Positions 36,183-53,546 are shown, counted from the stretch's first letter. The stretch: DNA of 64,000 nt from Candidatus Palauibacter denitrificans (GCA_009841015.1 VXMQ01000009.1:9942-73941); one strand, 5' to 3'. Program-made: numbers and translations. The notes: generated from the sequence alone by a model not told the origin.

Positions 36183-37163
36183 CTACGAATCGAACCGAAG
36201 CTCCCCGCTCCCGAGTGGCTCAACACCAACTTCGCGAATCCCGTTGCAGATGAGCCCCGCGAGCCAGTGGGCGCGGTGATATCTGAGAGTCTTGCGACCT
36301 CCTTCGGTGAGGTAGGTCACCTTGAGTCGCTGGGTGATGCAATTGAGCTGTGATCGGTCGCTCAGGTCCCACCAGCTGAGTCGCACGAAGCTGACCGCTG
36401 CGAAGACATGACGCCGGTTCTCCAGTATCCTCCTCGATGATTCCGAGTATATCCGCTCGTGGATCCGCTTGGAGAGAGACGTATGCGCCTCACGCAGCGC
36501 GTCAAGGACGGGCGGGCCAGCGCCGAGCGTCATGGTCATGTCCGCCGGAAGACAATCCGTCAGATCCACGACCAACGCACCGCCGTGGAAACGCTTTCGT
36601 AAGCGACCGTCTTCCTGCCTAAGGGTGAGTTGCCTTGCTGCCTTTGAAACCATGTTGCCGACATGGCTGAGGCTTTGAGGCCGCTTGACCTCGACCGAAT
36701 ACTCCATGGTGTTCTTCTTGATTATCACATCTGGACTTTTTTCGTCCTTCTTCAGATTGACGATGACCGGTGCCGTGCCAGCGGCGGCAATCATGGCGCT
36801 AGCCCAAAGTTCACTCTGCGCGCGATAAGCCGCGTGAGGGGTGGTTCCAAGTGCGCCGCCGATTGCGCGTCGGAGAGACGTGACGACCGGGTCAGACCGC
36901 TCGGATCCGAGCATATTGCCGATCACAAAAAAACTCTGCGCGTCGCGAACAGCATGGGCGATTTGCTTGAGTTGGTCAGGTGAAGCCGGGAAAGCCTTGC
37001 CTGAGGGGACTGAGTGCAGCACATCGATGGCCCTAAAGAGGCGGCTGCCAGGGGATACGGAGAACCCTGCCCATTTCTCGATCTTTCTTATCGTGTCGTT
37101 GAGGCGGTCAGCGAGAAGGGGCATCGCTTGGGGTGTAAGCTGTCTGTCGGAGGTCGACGTCAT
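36183..37163 (-). CDS. Hypothetical protein, possible PD-(D/E)xK nuclease fold; last gene of the nine-gene operon
   Basis: Internal ATG at 37163, 31 nt after the DUF499 stop. SPDVIIKKNTMEYSVEVKRPQ fits a D...E-x-K motif. No strong Shine-Dalgarno. Confidence 0.5.
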   Translation of the reverse strand: MTSTSDRQLTPQAMPLLADRLNDTIRKIEKWAGFSVSPGSRLFRAIDVLHSVPSGKAFPASPDQLKQIAHAVRDAQSFFVIGNMLGSERSDPVVTSLRRAIGGALGTTPHAAYRAQSELWASAMIAAAGTAPVIVNLKKDEKSPDVIIKKNTMEYSVEVKRPQSLSHVGNMVSKAARQLTLRQEDGRLRKRFHGGALVVDLTDCLPADMTMTLGAGPPVLDALREAHTSLSKRIHERIYSESSRRILENRRHVFAAVSFVRLSWWDLSDRSQLNCITQRLKVTYLTEGGRKTLRYHRAHWLAGLICNGIREVGVEPLGSGELRFDS

Positions 37164-37194
37164 CGGGCGTGGTATCGCTTGGCGGGGGCTCGGG

Positions 37195-40100
37195 TCAGGT
37201 GGATTTGAGGTCGGGAGCGGTGTCGGCGAGGGCGGCGTCCACGGCGGTGCGTTCCTCGTCCGATACGTTGCCGGTGAGCGTGACGGAGACCTCGAAGCCG
37301 AGTTCGGCGGAGCCGGCGGCGGCGAGGAGACTCGGTGCCCTGTCGGCCAATTCCTGTAGCTGTGCCACATCGAGTTTAGCGGCAGAAGACGGCGGCGGTG
37401 GTGACGGTGGTGCGTCCGTGCGCACTCTTATCTGGAGCTGTCTGGCCTGGTCGTACTCGCAGTTGGGGTCGACGCTTCCGTCCGCCAGCACGAGCCAGTG
37501 CGCGTTGATCGCAGCGCGGATTCCATCCCGCACGAGCCCCCAGGGAAGACTGGTTGCCCGTTCTTGCGAGAGCGCCTGCGCGATGGCGAGACCGTTCGCC
37601 GCGTCGTCTTGCCACGCAGCGGCTCGCATCGCTTCGGAGAGAAGATCTTGCGGCGTGAGCCGGTCCGGCGGCGGGCGTAGCATCGCCTTGTCGTTCAGCG
37701 CCCCAGCGGGCACCGGCTCTTTCCACGACGTGGCGGGTGGATTCGTGAGCCAGACTGTCCCGAGTTCAACGGCCTGCTCCACGGCTTCCAGCACCGTGTC
37801 GGCGGGGCAGGCTGGGACCGTGACCATATCGTCGTAGTGGTCGCGGGGGATCGTCGCGACGTGACCGCCCGCGAAGTAGTTGAGGAGCGTGGCCACCGGC
37901 AGGGCCGAACTGGCCTCGCCGCCGTCGTCGTCGGTCCACAGGCTGGGCAGCACTCCGGGAGCGAGCAGCGCCTCGGGCAGCCGGGTGAGTTCCGCCTTCT
38001 CAGGCAGGACGATCTCGAGCGCCTCATCTCCCGCAGCTTCCGCCTCCACCGATTCGCGCCACCACGTACGAAAGCTGCCGTCGGGCCGCCTCAGCCTAGC
38101 GACGAACAGGCCCTCCCGGACACCAGCCAACACCGTGTCGGTGACGAGCTTCGGCCTCAGTACCTTCGGGAGCCGCGGATGACGCGCGAAGGCGCCCGCC
38201 AACTGGCTGGCGAAACGGGCGTCCTCCCCCTCCTGCCATAGGTCGTATGGCCCCCCGGGAAGGAGGGCCTCGGCGTTCACCGGCGTATCCGTAAGGCGCG
38301 TCTTCTCGTGTCCCTTGATCTCCTCGAAGAGCGGCTGACCGCTGGCGGGGAGTTTGAAGGCGTGAACGCTGTTTTCTGCGTCCACCGTCACGACGATCCC
38401 ATAGGCTTGGCGAATCACGCTTGGCAACTCCGCCTGGGTGTTGCTCTTCTGGCGCCGGAGACGTTGCGACCGCACCGGATCCACCGTTTGGGTCGTGAGT
38501 TGCGATTCGACGTCCTCCCAACCGAGTAGCGCCCGCACTCGCGTGCGTGCCGCATCCAAACCCTCGCGCGACGGCACGGCGATGACCACCGCGTTGCGGT
38601 TCACGCGGGGCCGGTTCGAGCCCGTGGTCTCGTCGAGGAACTGCTTGGCGATTCTGCTCGGTTTTCCCGACTCCGACGCCGCGTCTGGGCCGAGGATCAC
38701 GTACCGGAAGCTGCCGTCGTCGCCGACCTCTCGCGGCGACTTAGGCAACATGTGCACAACGGCCCCGGCGGCGGCCGCGCCGCTCGTAAGAGGCTTCGTC
38801 TTACGGATCAAATCCTCCAGCCGCGCCTCCACCATGTCGTCAGTGACGCGGTCCTTGCATGCCTGGTCGTGCATCTGTTTCAGGTTGGGTGCGTTACCCA
38901 GGCGCCACGACTTGGGGAGGCCCCGCTCGGCCCCGTAGCTGGCTGCGTCGTCCCCGATGTCGGCGTCGTCAAGGAACCAGGAGGTGTCTCGCCAGCGGAG
39001 CAGCCCCTTCTCGAGTTCGATTCTGTCCGGACCCGCGCCGCCCACCAGACGCAGCAACTCGGGGGTGTGCGCCTTCTGGCCCACCGGCTGCGAATAGAGG
39101 AAGATGGCGACGACGGCCTGCTCCGCCTCGCGTTCCGGCTGAAGCGCCGAGCACTCACGCTGCACCTCCCGGGCCTTGTCCAATTCGGCCTCGAGCAGGG
39201 GCACCCATTCCGTCTTCTTGCCCTGCACGGCGTCCGTTGACGCGACGCCCGCGAGTTCCCGCACCGCCTCGGAGACGTTCGCGGAATCGGGTTCAGCGAG
39301 GAGAACGGCCGGACCGACCAGCGGACTCCGGTCCCATGACTCTGCGTCCCGGAGAGCCGTGGCGAGCGTACGCAGAATCCCGCGCGTGCGCTGGAAGCTC
39401 TCGATCTGCGTCCACCGGCTGTACAGAACGTCAGTCACGTCCGGGTGGAACGGAAAGCTGTGCAGGAACCGCTCCTCGGCCTCTTTCGTTCCGCGTCGCG
39501 TCGTTTCGTCAAGCTTGGCGATGCCCTTCACGATCCCGATTACCTGCGGCTTGTAGCTCTGCGGATCGCGGATGCTCTCGGACTCGAAGAAGCGGCGGCG
39601 AAGCACTTCCGCCACGTCCTCCCTCTGCACGGGCTGCACGCCCTCCTCGCGCTGACGGCGAAAGATGTCCGCGATGTCGCGAAGTATCTTCTTGCCAAGG
39701 GCATCGGTCATTCGCGACGGATCCGTGGCGAGGATGGATGCGACGATCGCCGCCCGGTCGATCTTCGTCACGGCCTGCGTGAGGTACTGGAAGAAGTTTC
39801 GCAGGTGCGCCACCCAATCCTCGGCCACCCCCGCCTTGGCGTGGGCGTACATCATGACTTCGTCCAGGAGAATGAGCGTGGCCGTCCCGTCCCGTTGCTG
39901 TCGCTCGATCAGCTTGACGAGGAGGGGCTCGGCCGGCGGCGTGTCGCGCTCCTCGTCCTCGTTGTTCGCGTGCAGCAGGCGCAGGCCCTCCGCCCCCGCA
40001 AGCTGGAACGCGAGCACGCTCCACGGGTGTTTGAGCGTCCGCCGCTCTCCGTCCGGGGCGCGCACGCCCTCAATGCCCTTCTCCACGTCGATCTTGTCGA

Positions 40101-40500
40101 AGCAGAGCGCTGCCGTGGCGGCCTGGGGAAGGCGGGAGTTCGCATGCTCACGGAACTCCCGCACAGCAGCGATGTCCGGCAGCCCGTCGGGGTCGTGGAA
40201 CAGGTGGTGGAGGGTGATGAGCGTGTGTGTCTTGCCGCCGCCATACGTCATCTCGAGCTGGCGGACAGCCTTGGTGTTCTGGCCCGCCAGTCGTCCCGCG
40301 ACATCCCTTACCAGCTCCCGCAGCGCGTGCGTGGGGTAGGTCAGCGCGAAGAACTTCTCCCGATCCTCGTAGATGGGCCGCTTCCCCGCCTCCGTGACCA
40401 CCTCGTGCAGGTCGGCGGCGAACTCGGCCAGCGAGAGCTCCCCCGAACGAAGTTCCGGCTTGAGACGAACGATCTGATGCCAAGGAACGAGATTCGACAT
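37195..40500 (-). CDS. DUF499 family ATPase (COG1483-like AAA+/P-loop protein)
   Basis: Internal ATG at 40500 (MSNLVPWHQIVRLKPEL). Walker A-like EMTYGGGKTHTLITLHHL and Walker B ATLILLDEVMMYA, 1101 aa. The N-terminal layout is typical of DUF499 as I recall it. Confidence 0.85.
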   Translation of the reverse strand: MSNLVPWHQIVRLKPELRSGELSLAEFAADLHEVVTEAGKRPIYEDREKFFALTYPTHALRELVRDVAGRLAGQNTKAVRQLEMTYGGGKTHTLITLHHLFHDPDGLPDIAAVREFREHANSRLPQAATAALCFDKIDVEKGIEGVRAPDGERRTLKHPWSVLAFQLAGAEGLRLLHANNEDEERDTPPAEPLLVKLIERQQRDGTATLILLDEVMMYAHAKAGVAEDWVAHLRNFFQYLTQAVTKIDRAAIVASILATDPSRMTDALGKKILRDIADIFRRQREEGVQPVQREDVAEVLRRRFFESESIRDPQSYKPQVIGIVKGIAKLDETTRRGTKEAEERFLHSFPFHPDVTDVLYSRWTQIESFQRTRGILRTLATALRDAESWDRSPLVGPAVLLAEPDSANVSEAVRELAGVASTDAVQGKKTEWVPLLEAELDKAREVQRECSALQPEREAEQAVVAIFLYSQPVGQKAHTPELLRLVGGAGPDRIELEKGLLRWRDTSWFLDDADIGDDAASYGAERGLPKSWRLGNAPNLKQMHDQACKDRVTDDMVEARLEDLIRKTKPLTSGAAAAGAVVHMLPKSPREVGDDGSFRYVILGPDAASESGKPSRIAKQFLDETTGSNRPRVNRNAVVIAVPSREGLDAARTRVRALLGWEDVESQLTTQTVDPVRSQRLRRQKSNTQAELPSVIRQAYGIVVTVDAENSVHAFKLPASGQPLFEEIKGHEKTRLTDTPVNAEALLPGGPYDLWQEGEDARFASQLAGAFARHPRLPKVLRPKLVTDTVLAGVREGLFVARLRRPDGSFRTWWRESVEAEAAGDEALEIVLPEKAELTRLPEALLAPGVLPSLWTDDDGGEASSALPVATLLNYFAGGHVATIPRDHYDDMVTVPACPADTVLEAVEQAVELGTVWLTNPPATSWKEPVPAGALNDKAMLRPPPDRLTPQDLLSEAMRAAAWQDDAANGLAIAQALSQERATSLPWGLVRDGIRAAINAHWLVLADGSVDPNCEYDQARQLQIRVRTDAPPSPPPPSSAAKLDVAQLQELADRAPSLLAAAGSAELGFEVSVTLTGNVSDEERTAVDAALADTAPDLKST

Positions 40501-40510
40501 GGAGCCTCGC

Positions 40511-40672
40511 CTATGCGAGCAAGTCCACGGACAGGCAACCCTCAACCGCCTCGCGGACGTCTTGCAGAAGTTCGTGGAGTGACTCGCCCTGGGATACGCA
40601 CCCCCGGATAGCCGGCACTTCGGCCCAGTAGCCGCCTTCCTCTGCCCGATGAACAACGATCTTCAGTATCAT
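40511..40672 (-). CDS. HicB-like (UPF0150) small protein, 53 aa; not in the supplied ORF track
   Basis: My own translation is MILKIVVHRAEEGGYWAEVPAIRGCVSQGESLHELLQDVREAVEGCLSVDLLA. GGAGGTG lies 3 nt upstream of ATG 40672. TAG stop at 40511-40513, 10 nt before the DUF499 ATG. The pattern E-x-GGY-x-AEVP-x(3)-GC-x-SQG matches the HicB N-terminal domain. Confidence 0.65.
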   Translation of the reverse strand: MILKIVVHRAEEGGYWAEVPAIRGCVSQGESLHELLQDVREAVEGCLSVDLLA

Positions 40673-40788
40673 GACACCTCCACCTCATCCCGGTCTTGCC
40701 CGGGCTCAACCGGGGTGGCAACCCCCGCAATACCCTAGGGAGCACACGCTTTTTTCGGGTAAGCAACGTCCAGCAAAGTACCGATCGC

Positions 40789-43700
40789 TCAGAAGAGCGA
40801 CCTCTGCGCCGGCGCTGCTCGCGACCCTTGGGAGGATGTTGCCGCGCTCCCGTCGCGCAGGTGGTTCTGCACCGATTCCAGCAGCGCCCGCTCCTCAGAG
40901 CCGCGTTCGGCCAGCTCGATAATGGCCTGCACCACGCTGGCGAACAGTTCGTGCTTCCACAACCCGCGGTCGCTCAGGTAGTTGTTGACGCGGGCCTGTT
41001 CTCCGGTCTTCCAGAGTTGCATGACCCTGTGCACGCAGTCGATGAGCGGTGGGGGCGCGCCATCAGGCATGGGCTGACCCAAGCGAGTGCCGCCCCGTTG
41101 GTTCCAACCCTTAAGGCGCACCGCACTGCCCGAGGTCGGTGCTCCCTCCGAGCTCTCCTCGTCGGACGTGGCGGCCGAGCTCCTCCCCCCGCGGGCGAGA
41201 AGATCATGCCTGCTCGCCAGGTCGGCGTCGGACAGGTTGCACGAGAGCGCGTACAGGATGCACGCGCCGGCGGGGGCCGCCTCCGAGCCGAAATCGTTGC
41301 GGTGCAGCAGGTAGTAGGTCGTGACGTCGTCCAGCTCCGTCGCCTCGCCGTTCCGTTGAGAGAGCAACTGGCCTACGATGAAGCCGACCACCATGCGTCG
41401 GACGTGTCGCAAGAAGTCGGCTACGGTCAGAACCTCACCTGGCCGGTCGGCTCGCTTGACGACCGGATGTCGGCTGAACGCCTCCAAAGCGGGTCCGGTG
41501 GCCGACCACACGAAGTCGGGTCCGCGAATTCCCGCATCCCAGAAGTCGCGTAGCCGTTGCGTGATTCTCTTCCGCATCTCGGAGAGGACGTTACGCTCCC
41601 ATCCGGGACGCCCTGGTGCCGAGCGTTTCCGGCACACGAGCCAAATCGACGACGCGAGAGCGGCGGAGGACATGGCGCGCTGCCGGGTCTGCATCTCGGT
41701 CTGAATCGGCCACGAGCCCGTCACCACGAAGCCCGCCCGGATCAACGCTGACACAAGCGTTTCCCACGCATCTGGGCTCTTGTTCGCGAACACAATGACC
41801 AGCCGCCCATCGTCGCCGAGGGCATCGTGGAAGCGACAGAACGCCCGAGCCATCCCATCTTCGTAGTTGTGCTTGGAAGCTTCCGTGTCCCCCTCGAAAC
41901 GGCTCGCGTCGTCGATGAGTTCGCCGTCGGATGCGCCCGGCTCCCACTTCGGACCCAACGGGTCGGCGAAGGCCGAGTCCGTGACGGACGAGAGACCGTG
42001 TAGAACGCGGCGAAGCCAAACCTGAAAGAAGTCCATCAGGTCAGAGTACGGGATCGCATCGTAGTAAGGCGGGTCCGTGCAAATCACGTCGAGACCGTTC
42101 GGCTGGGCGGCGATCGCGCTCCGGGTCTCAACTTCCACGGAGGGTGCATGCGACCCGGCGGGCAGGACATGGTCAACGCAACGCGCGACCCAATCGAGCA
42201 TGCCCTTGAACCCACCGGTCGTGGCGGACAGCGGGTTCACCTCGCAATAGTCCCATACCATCGGTGGCGCGAAGCGCACGAACGTGTGGCCGAGCTTTTC
42301 TCCGCTATTGTGCCACGAGCAGACCGCACTGCTGTAGTCGGTCAGCTTGCTGAACGCACATGCTAGGTATGCCGTCAACGCCCCCGGCCAATCGTCCAAG
42401 TTGCCGTCCATTTCGGCGCAGACGGAGCGGATCTCGCGTACGAACGTCCCCAATGCGAGCAGTTGACGGCGAGTGAACAGTTTCTCCCAAGAGTCGAGGC
42501 CGTAGCCATCAACCGAAAACGCACGAGAAGCACCAATTCCGGCTTTCGGGGTTGGCTCGTCGGGTGTGCCGAAAGGCACATCCGAATAGAGCGCGTCGAG
42601 TTCGCTCTGGCTCACGCCAGCGGCTTCGATGTCTCGCTCGGTGGGGGGGCGATACTCCTTGCCGGTCTGTCCAGCGAGGACCACGGCCGTCATCCGCGCT
42701 CCCAGTCGTCCCGACCGCCCTTGGGCGCGCAACTCGGCCATACTGGTCACGGCCCCGCAGTTCGGGCACCCGACTCCGCTAGAACTCATCGTGCCAGCGC
42801 CGAGGGATTCGTCGTGTCGCCGCCGCTGAGCGACCGATCCCGATCCCTGCGGCACGTCCGGCTCCACGCCGAACTCGACTCCGCTTCCATCGGCCCGTTT
42901 CGTCATCGTCAAGAGGACACGCTTGGCAGGGTTGGTCTTCTTGCATAGCCAACGCGTCTTGAGGAGCGGGATCTCGGCTCGACAGCCGCCGCACTCGGCG
43001 GTGCGCGCCCACAGATAGGCCACAACCGGCTTGACCACCCAACGCGGGTTGTTGTCGTCCTTCAGGTAGACTTCGTCAAAGTCGGCGTTCAGCGCCTCAG
43101 CCGTTACACGCCCGTCCGCATCCGGCTCGAGCAGACGAGGCACTCGCCGCTTGTATGGCTTGGGTTCCGCCTGCGACGCCCGCGACCGGCCCTTGCGCGG
43201 CACGGGCTCGAACTCGGCGTAGGTGGGGTATCGGGCGGCCAACTTCCGCCTCACGTTCTCTAGTACGCGAAGTCCCCACGCTCGGACGTGCCAGGCGAAA
43301 TCCGCCTTGACGTTGGCGTCGTCTCGAAGCACGGATGAGGAGATCTGCACGTCACCGCCGTCGCGGTGTCCCAGTTCGGCGAGCGCGTTTCTGATCTGAA
43401 CCTTCGTTCGCGCACCGCGCGACTTCACCAACGCGGTAGCGAAGTCGCGGTCTCCGAGCGCGAACTCTGGAAGCGGCCTCTCTTCTCGACCCACCAGCCG
43501 CGGGTAGTGGAGCGTGCAGCGCAGTATAAACCACGCCACGGGATTCAGGTCGGAGGCGAACGTCTCGCACCCAAGCCGCATCGCCTCCAGCGGAATCGCG
43601 CCGCCGCCCGCGAACGGATCCAGCACCCGTGGCGCCCGCCCGCCGAACGCCTCCCGTATCTCCTCCCGCAGACGATCCAACTCGGGATCGGTTTCTCGCC

Positions 43701-43995
43701 CCCAGTGCAGGATGCCGCCCGCCGTCTCCTTGAGTTTTGGATCCTCCCCTCCGCCCCTAAGCTCCTTAGGCACCAACCGCCCCGCGATGCGCCGCCCCAG
43801 CCTGCGCCGTCCCTCGTCGTCACCGGGGTCGGGCAGCAGAGTGGCCAGTAGCATGGCTCGGCTTGCCGCCAGCGGCCTCCGCGCCGGCCATATATGCAGC
43901 GTGGAGATGTGCCCGTGCCGCACGTTCTTCTCATGCACCGAGTCCAACGAGATTTGCCGCAGCGGCAGCGTCGCCTCAGCCAGACGTGCCATCAT
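40789..43995 (-). CDS. DUF1156 domain DNA methyltransferase (COG1743-like amino-MTase with Zn-ribbon inserts)
   Basis: DUF1156 signature HEKNVRHGHISTLHIWPARRPLAASRA, AdoMet motif VLDPFAGGGAIPLEA and catalytic VICTDPPYYD. Cys pairs ECGGCRAE and VGCPNCGAV. ATG 43995 shares ATGA with the KAP stop. The track ORF starts at GTG 44004. Confidence 0.9.
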   Translation of the reverse strand: MMARLAEATLPLRQISLDSVHEKNVRHGHISTLHIWPARRPLAASRAMLLATLLPDPGDDEGRRRLGRRIAGRLVPKELRGGGEDPKLKETAGGILHWGRETDPELDRLREEIREAFGGRAPRVLDPFAGGGAIPLEAMRLGCETFASDLNPVAWFILRCTLHYPRLVGREERPLPEFALGDRDFATALVKSRGARTKVQIRNALAELGHRDGGDVQISSSVLRDDANVKADFAWHVRAWGLRVLENVRRKLAARYPTYAEFEPVPRKGRSRASQAEPKPYKRRVPRLLEPDADGRVTAEALNADFDEVYLKDDNNPRWVVKPVVAYLWARTAECGGCRAEIPLLKTRWLCKKTNPAKRVLLTMTKRADGSGVEFGVEPDVPQGSGSVAQRRRHDESLGAGTMSSSGVGCPNCGAVTSMAELRAQGRSGRLGARMTAVVLAGQTGKEYRPPTERDIEAAGVSQSELDALYSDVPFGTPDEPTPKAGIGASRAFSVDGYGLDSWEKLFTRRQLLALGTFVREIRSVCAEMDGNLDDWPGALTAYLACAFSKLTDYSSAVCSWHNSGEKLGHTFVRFAPPMVWDYCEVNPLSATTGGFKGMLDWVARCVDHVLPAGSHAPSVEVETRSAIAAQPNGLDVICTDPPYYDAIPYSDLMDFFQVWLRRVLHGLSSVTDSAFADPLGPKWEPGASDGELIDDASRFEGDTEASKHNYEDGMARAFCRFHDALGDDGRLVIVFANKSPDAWETLVSALIRAGFVVTGSWPIQTEMQTRQRAMSSAALASSIWLVCRKRSAPGRPGWERNVLSEMRKRITQRLRDFWDAGIRGPDFVWSATGPALEAFSRHPVVKRADRPGEVLTVADFLRHVRRMVVGFIVGQLLSQRNGEATELDDVTTYYLLHRNDFGSEAAPAGACILYALSCNLSDADLASRHDLLARGGRSSAATSDEESSEGAPTSGSAVRLKGWNQRGGTRLGQPMPDGAPPPLIDCVHRVMQLWKTGEQARVNNYLSDRGLWKHELFASVVQAIIELAERGSEERALLESVQNHLRDGSAATSSQGSRAAPAQRSLF

Positions 43996-45341
43996 TCCTG
44001 CCACAGCAGATCGATGTCAGCGCAAATCTCCGCCATCTCCCTGCGCCCGCTGTAGAAGGTGGCCGAACTCCAATTCGCCCGTTCCTCCGCTGTCAAGTGC
44101 TCCTCCCCGTCGGCTGCCGAAAACGTCCAATACCGTTTGATCCTGTCGATGGTCTCTTCTCCAACACCTGGCCATTGGTCGAACTTCAGGAACGCCATCG
44201 CATCCCGATATCCGAGTCGCTCGCGTGCGGCGTCGTGATAAAGTTCGGGTGCCAGGGTTCGCATGACGCACAGCCCAGCGGAAAGGGCCCGGTGGATCTC
44301 GTTCGGGAATCCTCCCTTGCTCCTTTTAAGCAGCGCCAGGTTTAGCATTAGCCGTTCCTGGCTACGAAACGTAAGGTCGTGGACTTGAACGAGACTGTTG
44401 ATTGTCATCGTCGGGTTTTGGCCATGATTCCAAGACAGGCCCATCAGTTCCGCGAGGTGTCGGAGATACCGCGTGTGAGATGTCTCGGGTCCGCGGCTCA
44501 AGATCCTTCGAATGTCGAACCGAAGCTGGAAGAACTTATCCAGATACTGGTCGGCTTTCTCAAGGCCGTATGCCCGCTTCACCATGGCCGCCAACCCCTC
44601 TAGGTGGGTCACGAGCACGAAGCAGATTCCGTCCACGGTGAAGAGGTGCTTGACACGTTCGAGCACGTTCAGGGCGTAGGACGGGCGGCATCGATCCAGC
44701 TCGTCAATCACGAATACCAACGGCGCCTTGCCTTGCTCACCGTCACCCGTGTTGGCGACGGCGGCGGCGAGTGCGTCTCGGAAACCGTCGACACATTCCA
44801 CCTGAGTCGCGGCCTGCTCGAGAGATTCCTCGACAAACGCCTCAATGTCGTCCGTTTCGGCTGACCTCGCGTCCCGTACGTGCTGCTGAAGGTCGGCCAG
44901 CGACAAGAGGCCGCCGGTGCCGGTGCGCAGGGCCGCGTCTGCCACGATGCGGGGCATCGCCCGCACGAGAGGCGTCGCGGTTCGGACGAGAGATGCCTTG
45001 GAGTCTTTCAAGCGAGGGCCGCTCGAATCGGATGCCTTCAGGAGGTGGCCGAAGAGGGGGAAGAACGCGTCGTCGAGGTGATCGTGCTCAAAGGCATCGA
45101 AGTACACGACGGCGTGTCCGCGCTGCCGGAGTAGGCCTGCCCACTGTCTGGCGAATACGGACTTGCCGCTTCCCCAGGGTCCATCGAGAACGATAACGGC
45201 ATGGCCCGCGAGGTCGCCGACGATGTTGGCAAGCCGTTCACCGGGCGCCTTCGCTTGGAAGATATCGGACTTCTCAAACCCGGCGGTGTCACCGATGTCG
45301 AGGGGCCTCGGCGCGAGAAGGAGTTTGGCGGAACGACTCAC
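43992..45341 (-). CDS. KAP family P-loop NTPase
   Basis: Walker A VLDGPWGSGKSVFA and Walker B LVFVIDELDRCRPSYAL. GTG 45341 shares GTGA with the upstream stop. Confidence 0.85.
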   Translation of the reverse strand: MSRSAKLLLAPRPLDIGDTAGFEKSDIFQAKAPGERLANIVGDLAGHAVIVLDGPWGSGKSVFARQWAGLLRQRGHAVVYFDAFEHDHLDDAFFPLFGHLLKASDSSGPRLKDSKASLVRTATPLVRAMPRIVADAALRTGTGGLLSLADLQQHVRDARSAETDDIEAFVEESLEQAATQVECVDGFRDALAAAVANTGDGEQGKAPLVFVIDELDRCRPSYALNVLERVKHLFTVDGICFVLVTHLEGLAAMVKRAYGLEKADQYLDKFFQLRFDIRRILSRGPETSHTRYLRHLAELMGLSWNHGQNPTMTINSLVQVHDLTFRSQERLMLNLALLKRSKGGFPNEIHRALSAGLCVMRTLAPELYHDAARERLGYRDAMAFLKFDQWPGVGEETIDRIKRYWTFSAADGEEHLTAEERANWSSATFYSGRREMAEICADIDLLWQE

Positions 45342-47320
45342 GGCTTCCCGTCGATTCCGAAGTCGTGCGCCAGGGCTGTCAGCAGATCGTCCAAGTCCGA
45401 GGCGTGTGTCCTTGCTTTGAGGTAGTCGTCGTAGCTGGCCTCCGCTTGCTGCACGAGTTCGTCGTAGGTGACGTATCTTGCCCCGATCGCATCGAGTATT
45501 CGACGGTTGCCTTCCGGGTCATCCTGTGGCGTCGGTGCCGCACCGAGAACGGCGACGCACTCCACGTCGCGCGGCTCCCCCTGGTACTTGTCTCGTAAAC
45601 ACTTTTGCAGGGCACGACGGTACTTTTGCAACTGCTTCACGAGATCGGCGGCGTTGACTCGTGCGTCGTATCGCTTCAGTTCCACGATTACATGCTTCCC
45701 CGGCACCGTCTGGAACCTGATGTCAATCCGTCCTCGTCGCTCCTCCTCGCTGAGGCCAGCGTCGATCTTCTCAAACTCCGCACCGACCGTCTCCTCCATG
45801 CGAGGCACCGTCGCAGCCCGTTCCCAGGACGGGTGAAGGAGCCACAGATGGTTGAAGAGGTGCTCCTGCAACGCTCTTTCCAAGGCGTTCGGCACGAGAT
45901 TTCGCAACGCTTGGATCACCTTCAGACGCCCCTCGACGATGTCCCGGTAGCGCGTCGCTTCGATCTCGTCCACTCCGGTCATTAGACGGGCGAGAAGATC
46001 GAAGTCGCCCACCGTCTCAACGTGGTCCAGCGCGCTGAGCATGTCTTTGAGGGCCAACTTCTCAAATGCGAGAATCGACGCACGATACAACTCGTATTTT
46101 CGCTCATCTTCGTCGAGCCGCAGCGCCTCGATCTTGACGAACAGTCGCTTGGCCGTCCGCTGCGTGTCGGGCCCCCTTCGCTCGTACCAGGCCTTCACCG
46201 AAGGGTACTCGAGGGCCCTCTGCACTCCAGCCTGTTTCCGCTTGCGGTCCCACTCGTCCCGAATCGAATGAAGGGCTTGGTTCACGACCGTCTTAACGGC
46301 CACGTATCTTGCGTCGTCCTGCTGGACTCGTTGCCTGCCGCTCGTGATGATGTCGTCGTTGTCATCGTCGAGGAAATCCGCAATGACCTCGCCAACGACA
46401 TACTCGGTGTAAACGCGCGCTTGACGGTATTCGGGGAGCATATCCTCGTGAATCAGCCGGCCGCGGGCCGAGAGGACAACCGCGTTGTTTACGTCGTCCA
46501 GTTGGCTGGGCTTGCGGACGGTGCCGATGAAGCCGCGGATGGCGTGCTCAACGGGCGGGCCTCCATTCGGCGGCAGGATGGGCACAACATTTGGTAGGAC
46601 GCCGGCGCCGTCGCCCGATGGTGCCCTGGAGAAATCCCAGTCATCTGCGGGGTCGCCGAAGTACCAGATGAACTCCATGTCATTGAAGTAGTCGCGGTCA
46701 TCGAGGGTTATCGGGTCACCGTCGATGGACACGTCGAAACCGTGTTTCTCGCCAATAACGCTGAATCGGCGCGCCAAGCGGCGGCGCAGGTGATCTGCGG
46801 CCCAGGAGGGCCGCTTGCGAAGATCCGTAAGGCGGATCAGCGTGCCTCGGTCACTCTCCTCAACGAGGCAATCGATGGGCTCGGGGAAGTAATTCCCGCC
46901 CGTACGGGCGGCCTCCTCGATGTCCCTCGTGTTCATTCGGAACGCGTGTACCGATTCCCCGTCGGAAGTGTGGACGTCAACGGTGTCGGCGATGGAGAAC
47001 GCCGCGAGTTTCCCGATTCCCTTGCGCCCCATGACAGTGCGGCCGTCTGGAGTCTCGGCGTGTTGTAGGCGACGCTTATAGCCGACGGTGAGGAACTTGG
47101 AGTTGATGTCGTGGAGGCTCATGCCGTGTCCGTCGTCGCGGATCCGGATCGAAGGCGTCTGGTGATCGAAGTCGATACGGACCCGGCTCGCGTCGGCGTC
47201 CCATGCGTTAGCAACGAGTTCCGACAGGACGGCAGGTATGTTGCTATAGAGCCCGATGCCCAGGTGTTGGAGAACATCGAGACTAATCGTCATCTGAAAG
47301 GGGCGGTCATCGTGGGTCAT
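45338..47320 (-). CDS. GHKL (HATPase_c, MORC/Hsp90-like) ATPase with a C-terminal PD-(D/E)xK-like module
   Basis: N box LSELVANAWDADAS, G1 IRDDGHGMS and G2 GRKGIGKLAAFS. The C-terminal GRIDIRFQTVPGKHVIVELKRYD fits D...E-x-K. ATG 47320 shares ATGA with the C5-MTase stop. Confidence 0.8.
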   Translation of the reverse strand: MTHDDRPFQMTISLDVLQHLGIGLYSNIPAVLSELVANAWDADASRVRIDFDHQTPSIRIRDDGHGMSLHDINSKFLTVGYKRRLQHAETPDGRTVMGRKGIGKLAAFSIADTVDVHTSDGESVHAFRMNTRDIEEAARTGGNYFPEPIDCLVEESDRGTLIRLTDLRKRPSWAADHLRRRLARRFSVIGEKHGFDVSIDGDPITLDDRDYFNDMEFIWYFGDPADDWDFSRAPSGDGAGVLPNVVPILPPNGGPPVEHAIRGFIGTVRKPSQLDDVNNAVVLSARGRLIHEDMLPEYRQARVYTEYVVGEVIADFLDDDNDDIITSGRQRVQQDDARYVAVKTVVNQALHSIRDEWDRKRKQAGVQRALEYPSVKAWYERRGPDTQRTAKRLFVKIEALRLDEDERKYELYRASILAFEKLALKDMLSALDHVETVGDFDLLARLMTGVDEIEATRYRDIVEGRLKVIQALRNLVPNALERALQEHLFNHLWLLHPSWERAATVPRMEETVGAEFEKIDAGLSEEERRGRIDIRFQTVPGKHVIVELKRYDARVNAADLVKQLQKYRRALQKCLRDKYQGEPRDVECVAVLGAAPTPQDDPEGNRRILDAIGARYVTYDELVQQAEASYDDYLKARTHASDLDDLLTALAHDFGIDGKP

Positions 47321-48543
47321 GCGGCATACTCGTGGATGTGGGCGTGGATGACGTCCCCGATAGCGGCGGCGAGGCCGACTGGCACGGCGTTACCGATGTG
47401 CCGGCCGACGCGGGCGAACCACACCGGGTCACCGGGTGCAGTGAAGGCGTATCTTGCCGGGAAACTCTGCAGTAGAGCTGCTTCGCGGAGGGAAATCGCG
47501 CGGTCCTGCTCCGGGTGGCCGAATCGGCCGCGACCGAAGGAAAAACACCCCGTAGTCAGCGTGGGAGAAGGCTTGTCCCACTCCATGCGCCCGTAGACGT
47601 TCTTGTAGCTGGCGCCCGTGCTTCGCTGGTGGCATGGCGATACAAGGTCTGGATCATCCCATTCGGACCATGTCTTACCGGGCTTCGCCGCGCGGATTCG
47701 CCGGAGGTTTACCGGTGAGAGCCTCGACGAACGGTGCAACCCGTCCTCTGCGTCCACGTCCCCGGCATCAAGAGCGGGCATGTGCGCTATGGCGTCGCGA
47801 ACCGATGCGCGCTCGGCGACCGTGGAGGCCGGAACGTCGATGGGGCCCATCTTGGAGGCAACGACCACAAGGCGGCTGCGATCCTGCGGAACGCCGTAGT
47901 CTGCGGCGTTCACCACTTCGGCCGACACGTCGTATCCTGCGCCCTCCAGTCGCTCCAGAAACCCGTCGAACACCCGCCGCCCAGCGAAAGACCTGAGGCG
48001 CGGCACGTTCTCCATCGATATCACTTCAGGTTTGACAACCCCGATTCGATCCATGAAGAGGTCGACAAGCGACCATTTGTCTCGGGGTTTACCCGGTCCG
48101 GCGCTATAAGAGGAAAAGGGCGTACAAGGAGCACATCCGACCAGAATGCGGCGGGACCCCTCCGGAAAAAGCGATGCGACCTGCTCGCCGGACACCTCCT
48201 CCAGCGGCCGTCCCACGAAGGTCGCCTCGTTGTTCGTTTCGAAGGCGTACCGGCACGTTTCGTCGGCGTCCACTCCCGCGACGACATTGAGGCCGGCCCG
48301 GCGCAGTCCATGGCTCAGGCCTCCGATACCGCAGAAGAGATCGACGACAGCCCACTCGGACACGGTCGATTGAACCACGCTGGATTCTCCCGGGCAGCCA
48401 GGGGACACGGCCTCGCGCGAGAGCGGTTCCCCATCTGGGGCCGGGTCGAGCCGCGCAATCTCAGCTCTCGTGTCATTCACGTCATTCAACCGTCGTTCTC
48501 CGTCGGTCGCTTTCCGAGCAGGTAAGTGCAGAACGCGGCGCAA
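47317..48543 (-). CDS. dcm: DNA (cytosine-5)-methyltransferase
   Basis: Motif I VDLFCGIGGLSHG, motif IV GCAPCTPFS, motif VI SMENVPRL, plus QSFP and GNAVPV. The start is uncertain: TTG 48543 (58-nt overlap with the upstream gene) or GTG 48480 (5 nt after its stop). Confidence 0.93.
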   Translation of the reverse strand: MRRVLHLPARKATDGERRLNDVNDTRAEIARLDPAPDGEPLSREAVSPGCPGESSVVQSTVSEWAVVDLFCGIGGLSHGLRRAGLNVVAGVDADETCRYAFETNNEATFVGRPLEEVSGEQVASLFPEGSRRILVGCAPCTPFSSYSAGPGKPRDKWSLVDLFMDRIGVVKPEVISMENVPRLRSFAGRRVFDGFLERLEGAGYDVSAEVVNAADYGVPQDRSRLVVVASKMGPIDVPASTVAERASVRDAIAHMPALDAGDVDAEDGLHRSSRLSPVNLRRIRAAKPGKTWSEWDDPDLVSPCHQRSTGASYKNVYGRMEWDKPSPTLTTGCFSFGRGRFGHPEQDRAISLREAALLQSFPARYAFTAPGDPVWFARVGRHIGNAVPVGLAAAIGDVIHAHIHEYAA

Positions 48544-49484
48544 GCCGGAATCATGAACGCGGCTTCCGCTCGCCCAAGTCGGTCACTCGTGTCGGCCCCC
48601 CCGTGCCGTACTCCTGGCTCGTTAGAAGCCCACCCGAAGAGCTTCTCCATTGCGGAACAGAATGCCGGGTGAGTGTTCCAGTCCCTCTGCATCGTTTCGA
48701 GAATCGTGCCAAGCGGAGCCTTTCCGGGGACCAAACTCTTCGCCAGAGACTCAACCGCCGAGATACTCTCGTGCACGCTCTCTCGCCATTGCCCATCTCG
48801 CAACAACTCCTCGGCACGCCGCAAGTGCCCGCCCGCAGCAGGGTGCTCAGCCTCTGTAAGGCTCCGGCGCGCTTGCTCGATGGCGTGCCGTTCCTGCGCG
48901 TTGGCGGCGAAAATTATCGTCGGCGAGCCGTCCGTGTCGACGAAGTACGGCACGCCGTCCTCGTTGAACGCCGCCTTGACGTTCTGGATAAACGACGGGG
49001 GGCACTGCTCGTGTCTCATAGCTTCTTCCAGCAGGTCTAGAAGACGATTGCCCGGTGCGCCAACGAAGAATGGCCCAAATGCCTCAAGTACCTTTTCAAC
49101 GGCCGTGCCGCGATGTCCAAGGAAAGCGTCGTGGGCGGCAAGGTTGTCGCTTGAAACGCAGAGGTGCCTTTGTGCAAGCCGGGTGGCGATCTGTTCCCAT
49201 CCGCCCGCGAGAAGAACCGGTGCGTACGTTCCCGTCGCGGGGTCGGCTACGGCTGCTTGGCGTGTGGTTTCGGCGAATAGGCCCCAGAGGCCCAGCCGTA
49301 CGTGAGCTTGCAACTCCGCTGGCCCGGGACGACCGCGCGGTTTCTCCAGTCCGTCTGCCTGCGAGGACGGGGTCTCGCGGGAGTCAGGGCCCACGAAGCC
49401 GTCGGTCATTGAATCGCCGCTCGTAGGCGCGGGGTCCGAGCCGGCCTCGCCGGCACCTGGCCGCCGTCTATCGCCGGTTCTCAT
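48486..49484 (-). CDS. Hypothetical helical protein, HEPN / Abi_C-like C-terminal region (tentative)
   Basis: ATG 49484 shares ATGA with the helicase stop. The C-terminal ESISAVESLAK...FGWASNEPGVRHGG resembles the E-[ST]-x-x-K ... RN-x5-HG layout of Abi_C/HEPN domains, but the Arg position reads Ser. Confidence 0.45.
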   Translation of the reverse strand: MRTGDRRRPGAGEAGSDPAPTSGDSMTDGFVGPDSRETPSSQADGLEKPRGRPGPAELQAHVRLGLWGLFAETTRQAAVADPATGTYAPVLLAGGWEQIATRLAQRHLCVSSDNLAAHDAFLGHRGTAVEKVLEAFGPFFVGAPGNRLLDLLEEAMRHEQCPPSFIQNVKAAFNEDGVPYFVDTDGSPTIIFAANAQERHAIEQARRSLTEAEHPAAGGHLRRAEELLRDGQWRESVHESISAVESLAKSLVPGKAPLGTILETMQRDWNTHPAFCSAMEKLFGWASNEPGVRHGGADTSDRLGRAEAAFMIPACAAFCTYLLGKRPTENDG

Positions 49485-52400: not shown

Positions 52401-53128
52401 CGCAACGTGTCGAGCGAAACGACAACGCGGTCGCCACCGGATCCGGCGAACGGATTTCCGGCCCGGGCGTCGTCCCCTGACACGATGCGGAAGTCGAGCC
52501 GGAACAGAGTACGGAGTTCGCGCTCCCAGTTGCCCACGAGCCCAGCCGGAGGGACGACCAGCACGCGCCGGATTCGTCCGCGCATGAGCATCTCGCGAAC
52601 GTAGAGTCCGGTCATGATCGTCTTACCCGCGCCCGCGTCGTCCGCGAGCAGGAAGCGGAGTGGTTCCTGTTTGAGCATGTGCTCGTAGACCGCGATCCGC
52701 TGGTGGGGCAGGGGATGGATGCGCGAGATCTCGCTCGCGAATGCCGGATTGAACTGGTAGCCGTGCGTCAGCCGGAGCCCCTCCACAAAGAGGGAGAGCC
52801 GGTCCGGGTCACCGTTGAAGTCGAGGAACGGCGGATCGCGGACGTCCTGGCTCGCCTCTCGGATCACGTGGGTCCCGTCGCCGTATCGGGGGCGGTGCCG
52901 AGCCATGTCCAGCGCATGTTGCTCCTCCAGTTCGTCCAGACGTCGCAACGCGAGTCTCCTCGGGCTAGACTGCCCCGTCTCCCACCGGTGGACCGTGATG
53001 ACCGATACGCCGAGTCGCTTGGCGAAGCCCTCCTGGGTGAGCCTCAACCCGCGTCGAAGGCGACGAACGCGAGCCGGGATCGTCGGGCCTGCCGGGTCCG
53101 AATGCGACGCATCGAAATGTGAGGACAT
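49481..53128 (-). CDS. HTH(XRE)-SNF2 family helicase with a C-terminal DUF3883 (restriction-endonuclease-like) domain
   Basis: Internal ATG at 53128. HTH LRLTQEGFAKRLGVSVITVHRWETGQSSP. Helicase motifs LLADDAGAGKT, VVFDEAHKL, LLTATPHMG and QRMGRIHRYGQ. DUF3883-like GFDLLATRPDGSKRHIEVKGRAG...EFWLYVVYGC. The track ORF extension 53129-53464 is antisense to the Phd gene and was rejected. Confidence 0.9.
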   Translation of the reverse strand: MSSHFDASHSDPAGPTIPARVRRLRRGLRLTQEGFAKRLGVSVITVHRWETGQSSPRRLALRRLDELEEQHALDMARHRPRYGDGTHVIREASQDVRDPPFLDFNGDPDRLSLFVEGLRLTHGYQFNPAFASEISRIHPLPHQRIAVYEHMLKQEPLRFLLADDAGAGKTIMTGLYVREMLMRGRIRRVLVVPPAGLVGNWERELRTLFRLDFRIVSGDDARAGNPFAGSGGDRVVVSLDTLRGGAAFGRLTEPGTTPYDLVVFDEAHKLSATTSGGRTDKTQRYKLAEALAGCSSGTPGRMRLRRGNGGSTEPDWASLKWSAHHLLLLTATPHMGKDSPYHHLWRLLDHRVFGAEEAWRRFPPEDRSRHFIRRTKEEMVDFNGQPIFRNRRCDTFGYDLTEGPDGERALYDRTTEYLLGSYGRAMDNRQAVKLAMGVFQRRLASSTWALLTSLERRIQKVKALIADLETGRIDAASLGRRQAGLDRQFDADFFDTFDSADDQPDDRRRERSEAYEDAVLGAVVAVTVEELREEIETLRDLRDRARHLIDSGRESKFERLRELLESPEYAEEKWLVFSEHRDTADYLVRRLEALGHAGRVATIHGGMGWPEREEAVERFRDPSGARFLVATDAAGEGINLQFCRLMVNYDIPWNPARLEQRMGRIHRYGQEHDVRIFNLVSTDTREGRVLKVLLERLEAIRRELRSDKVFDVIGRMFENRSLVEYMRDTLTDEGERRARDRMSGLGSDEVRGIEEDDAHHYGPGGDVSRRLGTLRGEMERERYLHLLPAWVLRFVERSAPLLGLDVFGDLNDVFALVPNRGRALDPLLPALEAYPPEARDGLRVRRPEGDEPCIWLHPGEPVFDALCARVLAICERDAQRGAIFIDPKAEDPYLVHLGELAVLEEAEDETAPDVRARRTLEQRINCLRQGEDGRIAPLPLEYLAFLQEARHVPPGTVPLATRAVTLRAETNAYLHKEAQRVAEARREMVRDAIPERRARITLSLNLRAAEAASRRSALSRDPDADPEDLDAVKQEQANLRLERSVAVQELEGAARRIVPGEPRFRALAIALPPRGDEDIEAFDARVEATAMRIASEWERARRATVVDVSRPSGARAAGLGDYPGFDLLATRPDGSKRHIEVKGRAGRAEIRMEDNEWRAACHLGDEFWLYVVYGCAASNPQLVCIRDPFNRLIATITSRWNISVGEVLGAAEDGT

Positions 53129-53251
53129 GGCGCCAAGGTCGCCTACCTTCGACCTCTCGTCAAGCCAGGGTCGCGCCCGCTTCGCGTGTAACCTATCATT
53201 TGTTATGTTTCGAGCGACGCTAGATTCACGTGCGCGGCGAAACGGTTGGCC

Positions 53252-53275
53252 GCGATACGGCGAGGCGATACGGCG
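53252..53275 (+). promoter_or_regulatory. Tandem 11-nt direct repeat upstream of the Phd/YefM gene (candidate operator)
   Basis: gcgatacggcg occurs at 53252-53262 and again at 53265-53275 (13-nt period), 26 nt before ATG 53301. Confidence 0.3.
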
Positions 53276-53300
53276 GCTCCACACAGGATCGAGGGAATCG

Positions 53301-53546
53301 ATGCGCACGGTTGAAATCCATGACGCCCGGAAGCACCTGTCCCGCCTCGTCCAGGAGGCGGCGGACGGCGACCCGTTCGTCATCACGCGGGACGGCAGGC
53401 CGTTGGTCGAGGTGGTGTCGATCAGCACGCCGGGGCCCGCGACGGCTCGCCGAACCGGATTCATGGTCGGCGAAATCGCAGTTCCGCCGGACTTCGATCG
53501 AATGGGATCGACGGAGATCGAGGCGCTGTTCGACGCCGATCCGTAG
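53301..53546 (+). CDS. Phd/YefM-family type II antitoxin (VapB-like), no cognate toxin gene
   Basis: MRTVEIHDARKHLSRLVQEAADGDPFVITRDGRPLVEVVSI and a C-terminal VPPDFDRMGSTEIEALF tail. GAGGGA lies 5 nt upstream of the ATG. It is followed only by 16 nt before a convergent gene. Confidence 0.8.
   Translation: MRTVEIHDARKHLSRLVQEAADGDPFVITRDGRPLVEVVSISTPGPATARRTGFMVGEIAVPPDFDRMGSTEIEALFDADP

Follow-up and report, generated by a model that had tools for sequence, protein, structure and literature searches.

Is a row of nine tightly packed genes, with two methylases, four NTPases and several predicted nucleases, a single machine, or is it a known defence system in which other defence genes have become nested? 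This question is raised by a 64,000-nt stretch of DNA from Candidatus Palauibacter denitrificans (GCA_009841015.1, VXMQ01000009.1:9942-73941; the whole stretch is called here the window), whose minus strand holds nine open reading frames (ORFs) between positions 36,183 and 53,128. An earlier note on this DNA had described a co-directional, tightly packed and methylation-linked defence locus, a description that the ORFs, their junctions and their profile matches bear out. The same note had gone on to propose one welded unit and an undescribed system, and neither proposal is supported by the comparison with described systems and related loci. Three of the genes correspond to a system already named Hma (PMC8565338, PMC12839542), the nesting of further genes in such loci has also been described (bioRxiv 10.1101/2024.01.29.577857, PMC11232893), and the supposed unit comes apart into a frame and its cargo: a restriction-modification (R-M) pair that appears to be a classical type II system, two genes that match PADLOC single-gene candidates, and relatives that keep the frame and vary the cargo. 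We consider it highly probable that the locus is a Hma, or Type-1 BREX-related, frame with embedded and separable defence modules, namely the R-M pair and the two candidate genes. What is new here is the combination of cargo; the Hma system and the embedding of defence genes were described before.

The Hma frame

The name Hma (helicase, methylase, ATPase) was given by the authors of PADLOC to a system with 1,638 instances in 26 phyla (PMC8565338), which a 2026 study has renamed the Type-1 DUF499-centred BREX-related (BR) system (PMC12839542). In the window, the product of hmaA matches the PADLOC HmaA profile (E 1e-163) and the Pfam families SNF2-rel_dom, Helicase_C and NOV_C, and it carries the motifs GAGKT (residue 166), DEAH (265) and FDLL..HIEVKG (1125-1143); the start of the gene is conserved in three related loci (L001, L121 and L126). 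HmaB is matched by the corresponding PADLOC profile (E 9e-109) and by Pfam DUF1156 (E 6e-18), with the motifs DPFAGGG (126) and DPPY (641). HmaC matches the PADLOC profiles HmaC (E 2e-70) and DUF499 (E 9e-17), and the NCBIfam model DUF499_antiphage at an E value of 2e-24, which is below its cutoff; Pfam's own DUF499 model gave no match to it at E <= 0.01. Walker A (GGGKTH, 87) and Walker B (LLDEV, 211) motifs are both present. All three genes share one strand and follow the order A-B-C, in the window as in its relatives. Judged by these profiles, the helicase, the DUF1156 methylase and the DUF499 ATPase are the Hma system, now Type-1 BREX-related, which agrees with the earlier recognition of the DUF1156/DUF499/SNF2-DUF3883 trio as an R-M-like set.

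Four genes stand between hmaA and hmaB in the window, while the published census of Hma loci allowed at most three (bioRxiv 10.1101/2024.01.29.577857), so that an automatic Hma call may miss or split this locus.

With regard to function, the HmaA protein of Halomonas meridiana protects Escherichia coli against phage T4, for which its C-terminal nickase domain is required (PMC11232893). The 2026 study proposes that such systems label their own DNA by means of the methylase, scan with the ATPase and restrict with the helicase-nuclease, while the extra nucleases found inside the loci serve as back-ups (PMC12839542).

A type II restriction-modification pair inside the frame

Two adjacent genes between hmaA and hmaB encode a C5 cytosine methyltransferase (MTase) and a GHKL-ATPase protein. 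The MTase is identified by Pfam DNA_methylase (E 9e-51), by TIGR00675 dcm (122 bits against a cutoff of 100.65) and by PADLOC MTase_II (E 2e-78), and shows the motifs FCGIGG, PC, ENV, QDRSR and GNAVP. Residues 8-650 of the GHKL protein align with positions 1-659 of the NCBIfam equivalog NF050001 (702 bits against a cutoff of 550); PADLOC REase_II also matches (E 1e-91), the HATPase_c_3 domain is confirmed, and the Bergerat motifs ELVANAWDA, DDGHGM and GIGKLA can be read, followed by a C-terminal IDIRF..VELKR segment with a weak match to NucS (E 4e-4).

An N-terminal GHKL domain was described for the type II enzyme R.HgiDII (PMC2441816), and M.HgiDII is the 5-methylcytosine (m5C) methylase for GTCGAC (PMC5867850). 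Taken with the whole-length match to NF050001, these precedents identify the two window genes, at the level of family membership, as a classical type II R-M pair of the HgiDII/BbrUII family. The pairing of the C5 MTase with the GHKL protein, already suspected on first reading, is upheld by that family match and by the adjacent methylase. By analogy with the family archetype HgiDII, the pair would recognize GTCGAC.

Two embedded candidate genes

The first gene after hmaA, designated here S32, matches the PADLOC family PDC-S32 (E 2e-35). Its homologues begin at residue 26 of the ORF as first read, that is, at ATG 49409, and the database gene call for the same sequence is 307 aa long; this start is at least as likely as ATG 49484, which is preceded by GGAGGA. 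Within the family, the adjacent R-H in GVRHG and the segment SISAVES are invariant. Precomputed Pfam assignments list Abi_C or AbiJ_NTD4 for homologues, both below the Pfam cutoffs on re-scan (Abi_C E 0.037). The AlphaFold (AF2) model, with a predicted local distance difference test score (pLDDT) of 79, has a predicted C-terminal helical domain of four helices, whose Foldseek neighbours are HEPN proteins (1ufb, 1o3u, 2hsb, 1wol, sacsin and AbiV) with probabilities of 0.85-0.97 at E values above 0.2; a profile search against the sequences of the PDB gave nothing meaningful. On the predicted fold, the HEPN-like assignment made earlier is reasonable though tentative: Abi_C and the structural neighbours speak for it, and the Pfam and Foldseek scores stay below significance. 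A homologue of S32 is nested in a type I R-M operon of an unrelated genome (L090, 6600-8855), between hsdM/hsdS and hsdR. That operon also holds a HicB-like small gene, so that both small-cargo families of the window occur there in a different frame.

The last gene before hmaB encodes a KAP-family NTPase, with a Pfam KAP_NTPase match above cutoff (E 9e-30), a PADLOC PDC-S20 match (E 6e-60), Walker A GSGKS (57) and Walker B IDELDR (212), together with weak matches to PifA, QatA and mad8. The database calls a gene of 492 aa, 43 aa longer than the 449-aa ORF from GTG 45341, which would overlap the nuclease gene by 129 nt; since most full-length KAP homologues measure about 445-460 aa, the shorter form is favoured. 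Homologues with 39-75% identity to the window copy are found directly 5' of DUF1156 genes. A subfamily at 36-51% identity takes this place in L003, L009, L011, L029, L123, L124 and L125, and one KAP homologue (P0137) carries KAP_NTPase and NOV_C domains. Around more distant KAP relatives (25-36% identity), the flanks examined in 30 metagenome loci contain no Hma gene.

A literature search found no paper that names PDC-S20 or PDC-S32, and no report of a test of a PDC-S32 member.

Cargo turnover at one chromosomal site

On either side of the island (up to 33036 and from 53469), the flanking DNA shares about 88-91% identity with L001 and L121, which places the island at a fixed site on the chromosome of genomes closely related to Candidatus Palauibacter (Gemmatimonadota). 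The island itself, of about 20 kb, has a GC content of 0.60-0.65 against about 0.69-0.74 in the flanks, and its third-position GC is lower too. DNA homology to L001, L002 and L121 ends at the hmaA stop and picks up again at the hmaB start, in each case exactly there or no more than about 12 nt away.

The nearest loci, compared at about 85% frame identity, differ in what lies between these two genes. With M and R standing for the methylase and the nuclease of the type II pair, the window reads S32, M, R, KAP. The loci L121/L122 and L126/L127, seemingly two closely related metagenomic lineages of Palauibacter-like Gemmatimonadota at the same site, read M, R, KAP, S32, and have the same HicB-like small ORF (sORF) as the window. 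L001 holds M, R, a gap and S32, without KAP; L002 has a KAP fragment and M followed by HerA- and NurA-like genes, without the nuclease or S32. At the same chromosomal site, L083 retains a truncated DUF499 gene (901 aa), a homologue of the terminal ORF of the row and a transposase. The more distant L089 carries a Zeta-like kinase, M, R and S32. Loss of the four middle genes from homologous loci, which the earlier note had named as a sign of unrelated neighbouring systems, is seen in part: the genes are kept, though reordered, in L121/L122 and L126/L127, and not in L001, L002 and L003.

Relative to L121, the ratio of nonsynonymous to synonymous substitution rates (dN/dS) is 0.11-0.25 for all eight shared genes, and judged by these values they are functional and under purifying selection. 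The synonymous rate (dS) of S32 reaches 1.41 against 0.47-0.69 for the frame genes, a difference suggesting that its allele was probably replaced by exchange and did not descend in place with the frame. The locus is also found in a decayed state, in L083, as described, and in L125, where the hmaA and hmaB frames are interrupted and KAP is intact.

Cargo of related Hma loci

A broader comparison was based on the best 80 of 588 HmaB relatives (L001-L080) from a scan of one genome per species. Almost all are metagenome-assembled genomes, from Gemmatimonadota, Acidobacteriota, Latescibacterota, Chloroflexota, Spirochaetota and Proteobacteria, with HmaB identities of about 56-73% (85% for the two closest), and this spread over phyla suggests wide horizontal transfer. 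HmaA was found in 73 and HmaC in 77 of the 80 loci, and the frame genes always share one strand, with the order A-B-C. The gap between hmaA and hmaB has a median length of 3.1 kb and measures at least 300 nt in 71 of 75 loci, while that between hmaB and hmaC has a median of 2.0 kb; the window has 5,485 and 288 nt, respectively.

Clustering by sequence divides the ORFs of these gaps into 360 groups, of which 283 have a single member; in the two gaps they match 389 and 254 different PADLOC families. Any of the four cargo families of the window is present in 29 of the 80 loci, and all four together in none. Pairs of C5 MTase and GHKL genes number seven, in six loci, and occupy either gap in either gene order. 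The commonest cargo, absent from the window, is an ABC ATPase of about 430 aa (AAA_21/AAA_15; HEC-01A/PDC-M07A-like), found in 37 loci and mostly in the B-C gap. It is followed in at least 12 of those 37 by a partner of about 190 aa, which goes with a recurrent B-C gap of about 2.0 kb; the window has its 53-aa sORF in that gap.

Published surveys describe the same behaviour. Gene insertions were reported in about 66.5% of Hma loci, which were called a "defence gene insertion hotspot" (PMC11232893). In another study, embedded genes were found in 62.7% of 1,485 Hma systems and make up 376 distinct cassettes; 96.7% of the embedded genes have the orientation of the frame, and 145 "PDC" candidates were drawn from genes nested within BREX, DISARM and type I R-M systems (bioRxiv 10.1101/2024.01.29.577857).

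Organization of the row

Direct reading confirmed the nine minus-strand ORFs, with every junction as first listed: four 4-nt overlaps, the spacings around the sORF and hmaC, and the single larger gap (Table 1). All nine ORFs are intact, and their Walker, methylase, Bergerat and nuclease motifs are complete. One junction can be read in two ways. The ATGA shared by hmaA and S32 is there, and the start of S32 homologues at residue 26 leaves a 72-nt gap equally open. The initial domain calls (helix-turn-helix, SNF2, NOV_C/DUF3883, C5 methylase, GHKL, KAP, DUF1156, DUF499 and HicB-like) are confirmed by profiles. Of three PD-(D/E)xK modules proposed at the same time, the tail of HmaA is likewise supported, and those in the tail of the GHKL protein and in the terminal ORF depend on motifs and sub-threshold matches.

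Table 1. Positions of the genes, junctions and spacers of the Hma locus and of its neighbours in the window
Feature	Position	Strand	Description
NYN-domain gene	33182-33892	+	236 aa
NACHT-like gene	33896-36166	+	STAND NTPase, 756 aa; begins 3 nt after the NYN-domain gene
Terminal ORF	36183-37163	-	326 aa, ATG at 37163; unannotated family, PD-(D/E)xK-like motif
Spacer hmaC/terminal ORF			31 nt between hmaC stop (37195) and terminal-ORF ATG
hmaC	37195-40500	-	DUF499-family AAA+ ATPase, 1101 aa, without N-terminal HEPN fusion
HicB-like/UPF0150-like sORF	40511-40672	-	53 aa; 10 nt 5' of the hmaC start (40500)
Spacer hmaB/sORF	40673-40788		116 nt; sole gap above 100 nt in the row
hmaB	40789-43995	-	DUF1156 amino-methyltransferase (DPPY)
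Junction KAP/hmaB	43992-43995	-	ATGA; KAP stop overlaps hmaB start
Embedded gene 4, KAP	43992-45341	-	KAP-family P-loop NTPase; PADLOC PDC-S20
Junction GHKL gene/KAP	45338-45341	-	GTGA; GHKL gene stop overlaps KAP start
Embedded gene 3, restriction enzyme	45338-47320	-	GHKL-ATPase endonuclease, BbrUII/HgiDII family, predicted R subunit
Junction C5 MTase/GHKL gene	47317-47320	-	ATGA; MTase stop overlaps GHKL gene start
Embedded gene 2, C5 MTase	47317-48480	-	C5 cytosine DNA methyltransferase, predicted M subunit; start GTG 48480 or, alternatively, TTG 48543
Embedded gene 1, S32	48486-49484	-	AbiJ-like, C-terminal HEPN-like domain; PADLOC PDC-S32
Junction hmaA/S32	49481-49484	-	ATGA; hmaA stop overlaps ATG of the next gene
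hmaA	49481-53128	-	XRE-type helix-turn-helix, SNF2 helicase and C-terminal NOV_C/DUF3883 PD-(D/E)xK nuclease, 1215 aa
Divergent intergenic region	53129-53300		172 nt between hmaA and the Phd/YefM-like gene
Phd/YefM-like gene	53301-53546	+	81 aa, antitoxin-like

The divergent region 5' of hmaA is likely the promoter region of the row. Its position is kept in L121 and L126, and the consensus scan found no promoter within it. From this region the nine genes would probably be co-transcribed, the term operon being used here on the basis of gene spacing. The same scan detected no terminator-like site on the minus strand between the genes of the row, with little power in such a genome; it gave 2 promoter-like sites against 1.8 expected and 6 terminator-like sites against 10.6 expected, figures that are silent on internal transcription units. 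The spacer after hmaB is a possible internal promoter or regulatory region; it contains about 45 nt of comparatively A+T-rich sequence with no counterpart in the orthologous spacer of L121, followed by two short GC-rich hairpin-like repeats. Scans of the whole window for tRNA, tmRNA and Rfam families found nothing.

At the other end of the cargo, the gene 5' of hmaB overlaps the hmaB start in the window and in L089, L121, L124 and L126, though the gene differs (KAP or AbiJ-like).

Smaller cargo, terminal gene and neighbours

The sORF between hmaB and hmaC gives two Pfam matches that narrowly miss the cutoffs, to UPF0150 (E 4e-6) and to HicB_lk_antitox (E 9e-6), and covers the N-terminal domain only. 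Orthologues with 79-82% identity are called as genes in L121 and L126, and dN/dS relative to L121 is 0.24. As a general feature of Hma it was rejected, being absent from L001-L080, and a HicAB toxin-antitoxin module was likewise discarded, as no HicA-like ORF lies adjacent to it.

No Pfam, PADLOC or NCBIfam family matches the terminal ORF. It belongs to a family of about 31 homologues in which QSELW, PD, VEVKRP and DLTDC are conserved. Its AF2 model (pLDDT 84) shows weak local fold matches only, to the PD-(D/E)xK enzymes Hjc, N.BspD6I and HincII, and the fold search returned no PDB match at E <= 1e-3. The structural check that had been suggested, AlphaFold followed by Foldseek, yielded for the two proteins on which it was run, this one and the HEPN-like one, neighbours of the anticipated folds, none of them at E <= 1e-3. 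Some homologues of the terminal ORF follow hmaC/DUF499 genes; others occur away from Hma, alone beside transposase, integrase, Mrr or N6/N4 methylase genes. In the window it probably represents an independent gene added at the end of the row, and it can be put forward as a candidate new defence nuclease.

Two further groups of genes border the island. Divergent from hmaA is the Phd/YefM-type antitoxin-like gene (Pfam E 2e-10), which lacks an adjacent toxin gene; a similar gene has the same border position in L121, L126 and L083. At the opposite end, the NYN-domain and NACHT-like genes are convergent with the Hma row and show no significant PADLOC family match, the NACHT-like protein having marginal ones only (E above 0.002). 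NACHT homologues lie at the same place in L002 and L126. The two genes are possibly a separate, unclassified defence pair.

A proposed layered defence and its alternatives

How might such a locus work? Following the roles proposed in the literature for Hma proteins, HmaB, an amino-methyltransferase, would mark the host DNA, HmaC would scan for or recognize unmarked DNA, and HmaA, combining an SNF2 translocase with a PD-(D/E)xK nickase, would attack it; the XRE helix-turn-helix of HmaA may in addition autoregulate the row. The HgiDII/BbrUII-family pair would add a type IIP R-M layer with its m5C methylase and GHKL nuclease, the AbiJ-like HEPN protein is a predicted abortive-infection RNase, and the KAP NTPase is a predicted sensor or abortive-infection protein. 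The sORF between hmaB and hmaC and the predicted nuclease after hmaC would be small extra cargo. Nesting would keep these defence layers co-inherited and co-expressed, with the frame persisting while the cargo turns over by cassette exchange near the boundaries of the frame genes.

Several observations weigh against a frame with separable cargo. All four cargo genes stay together, as M-R-KAP-S32, in L121/L122 and L126/L127, and M-R-S32 recurs in L089. Most KAP homologues with 39-51% identity whose loci were examined, among them three of three picked at random, stand immediately 5' of hmaB, and the identities of KAP and S32 to the window copies track that of HmaB (Spearman 0.85 and 0.77, n=13 each, the points being neither independent nor corrected for phylogeny). 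GTCGAC is not avoided in the window (44 sites observed, 48 expected), a count that is uninformative as a check of specificity. Finally, the HmaB protein of Halomonas gave no R-M-like protection against T4, and the mechanism of Hma is largely inferred, HmaA being the only component tested (PMC11232893). The joint retention of the four genes, with purifying selection on every gene, is what would be expected if the nine genes formed a single integrated and previously undescribed machine comprising both methylases, the four NTPases and the nucleases, and the tight packing, the four stop/start overlaps and the lack of terminator-like sites between genes point the same way. Such overlaps, however, are ordinary in operons, and the order of the four genes is not that of L121/L126. 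The equally close L001, L002 and L003 do without one to three of the four, 51 of the 80 Hma loci have none of these families, and the R-M pair is found elsewhere between hmaB and hmaC, and reversed. The nuclease, moreover, belongs over its full length to a type II family whose enzymes have the methylase as their sole partner (PMC2441816), and the S32 family is nested also in type I R-M. A single machine is for these reasons very unlikely. Still harder to believe is that the island is a silent or decaying remnant of horizontally acquired genes whose defence function has been lost: its lower GC content, also at third positions, and the decay of the related L083 (truncated DUF499 gene and transposase) and L125 (broken hmaA and hmaB) would suit such an origin, but the nine intact ORFs with complete catalytic motifs and the low dN/dS values are at odds with it, and we regard it as extremely improbable.

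The slot 5' of hmaB deserves a closer look, as it could indicate that a Hma subtype employs KAP and the AbiJ-like HEPN protein as dedicated effectors, accessory or back-up, which would be triggered when Hma is inhibited or overwhelmed. KAP ends at the hmaB start in six of the eight KAP-bearing loci of the genome set, as it does in L123, L124 and L125, and it is next to last in L121; the slot is taken by S32 homologues in at least 7 of 10 loci, and in L089 as well. Together with the parallel identities mentioned above, by which both families may be long-term partners of Hma rather than free cargo, and with the proposal of auxiliary and back-up effectors inside BREX and BR loci (PMC12839542), this gives the idea some substance. 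The start of hmaB reads NTGA in 47 of 75 loci, so that any upstream gene may end in a stop/start overlap with it. On the other hand, either family turns up in only about 10% of the related Hma loci, the one slot is used by two families unrelated to each other, for which a positional or insertional effect serves as well as a functional one, and the correlation of identities takes no account of phylogeny. PDC-S20 and PDC-S32 are, besides, single-gene candidates of PADLOC, and the PDC set was derived from nesting in BREX, DISARM and type I R-M (bioRxiv 10.1101/2024.01.29.577857). No integron-like or att-like site and no conserved DNA motif was found at the cargo slot, where the information content, taken over 75 loci and 80 nt upstream of hmaB, is at most 0.3 bit per position, nor were direct or inverted repeats of note found flanking the island. 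The recurrent slot fits a preferred insertion position and a long-standing accessory relationship alike. We therefore regard dedicated accessory effectors as unlikely, and it is with similar reserve that KAP, and perhaps also the AbiJ-like HEPN protein, could be seen as a fourth and a fifth Hma component tied to hmaB in this clade. Were this so, the clade would represent a subtype of Hma (Type-1 BR) that has its own abortive or back-up arm built in.

Implications

Read as a Hma frame with embedded modules, the window forms with L121, L126, L001, L002 and L083 a natural series of cargo turnover at a single site, where cargo has been kept, shuffled, replaced or lost. Such a series is useful for asking how embedding arises, a matter for which the accessible portions of the cited papers offer no explanation. 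Three candidates with clear sets of homologues also emerge: the AbiJ-like PDC-S32 family, the hmaB-adjacent KAP subfamily, and the unannotated PD-(D/E)xK-like family of the terminal ORF. The limit on intervening genes, three in the published census, could hide further Hma loci with larger cargo.

Comparison with known systems

BREX type 3, DISARM and MADS have a general logic in common with the window, that of a methylase combined with a large ATPase and an SNF2 helicase. The hallmark genes of these systems had been reported as lacking, and among the ten proteins scanned (the nine of the row and the NACHT-like neighbour) PglZ, DrmB/DUF1998, a PLD-type DrmC and the full mad set were indeed not detected. 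On these ten proteins, membership was rejected for BREX, as there is no PglZ match and only partial similarity of HmaA to BrxHII and of HmaB to PglXI; for DISARM, as only the SNF2 core of HmaA matches the DrmD/DrmA models, less well than it does the HmaA profile, and no DUF1998 or PLD protein appears; and for MADS, whose hallmark genes were not detected.

Hma, or Type-1 BR, has the same three proteins as the trio of the window, on one strand and in the same order, with strong profile matches. The nuclease motif that is essential in the HmaA of Halomonas (PMC11232893) is present in that of the window as well. An N-terminal XRE helix-turn-helix sets the window HmaA apart, and its HmaC is without the N-terminal HEPN fusion that about half of the Type-1 BR systems have.

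The embedded genes can be compared in the same manner. HgiDII/BbrUII type IIP systems consist, like the pair of the window, of a full-length nuclease with an N-terminal GHKL domain and an adjacent canonical m5C methylase, but here the pair is nested inside another methylation-based system. With the KAP-family defence NTPases QatA, PifA and MADS mad8, the embedded KAP protein has its domain and Walker motifs in common, and the partner genes of Qat and MADS are missing from the window. The likeness of S32 to AbiJ-type HEPN abortive-infection proteins lies in the weak AbiJ_NTD4/Abi_C signals of its family members and in the predicted HEPN-like C-terminal domain, its conserved pair being an adjacent R-H instead of the usual Rx4-6H of HEPN.

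The closest parallel to the locus as a whole is found in the Hma loci described under "guilt by embedding" (bioRxiv 10.1101/2024.01.29.577857, PMC11232893), which carry closely spaced and variable defence cargo in the orientation of the frame, as do the window and its relatives; the HEC-01-like ABC ATPase pair of those published loci is also the commonest cargo of the 80 relatives. The particular set of an HgiDII-type R-M pair, an AbiJ-like gene, a KAP gene and a HicB-like sORF is not among the embedding examples in the accessible portions of those publications, and, unlike the cargo described there, it is stable across a small clade at one chromosomal site.

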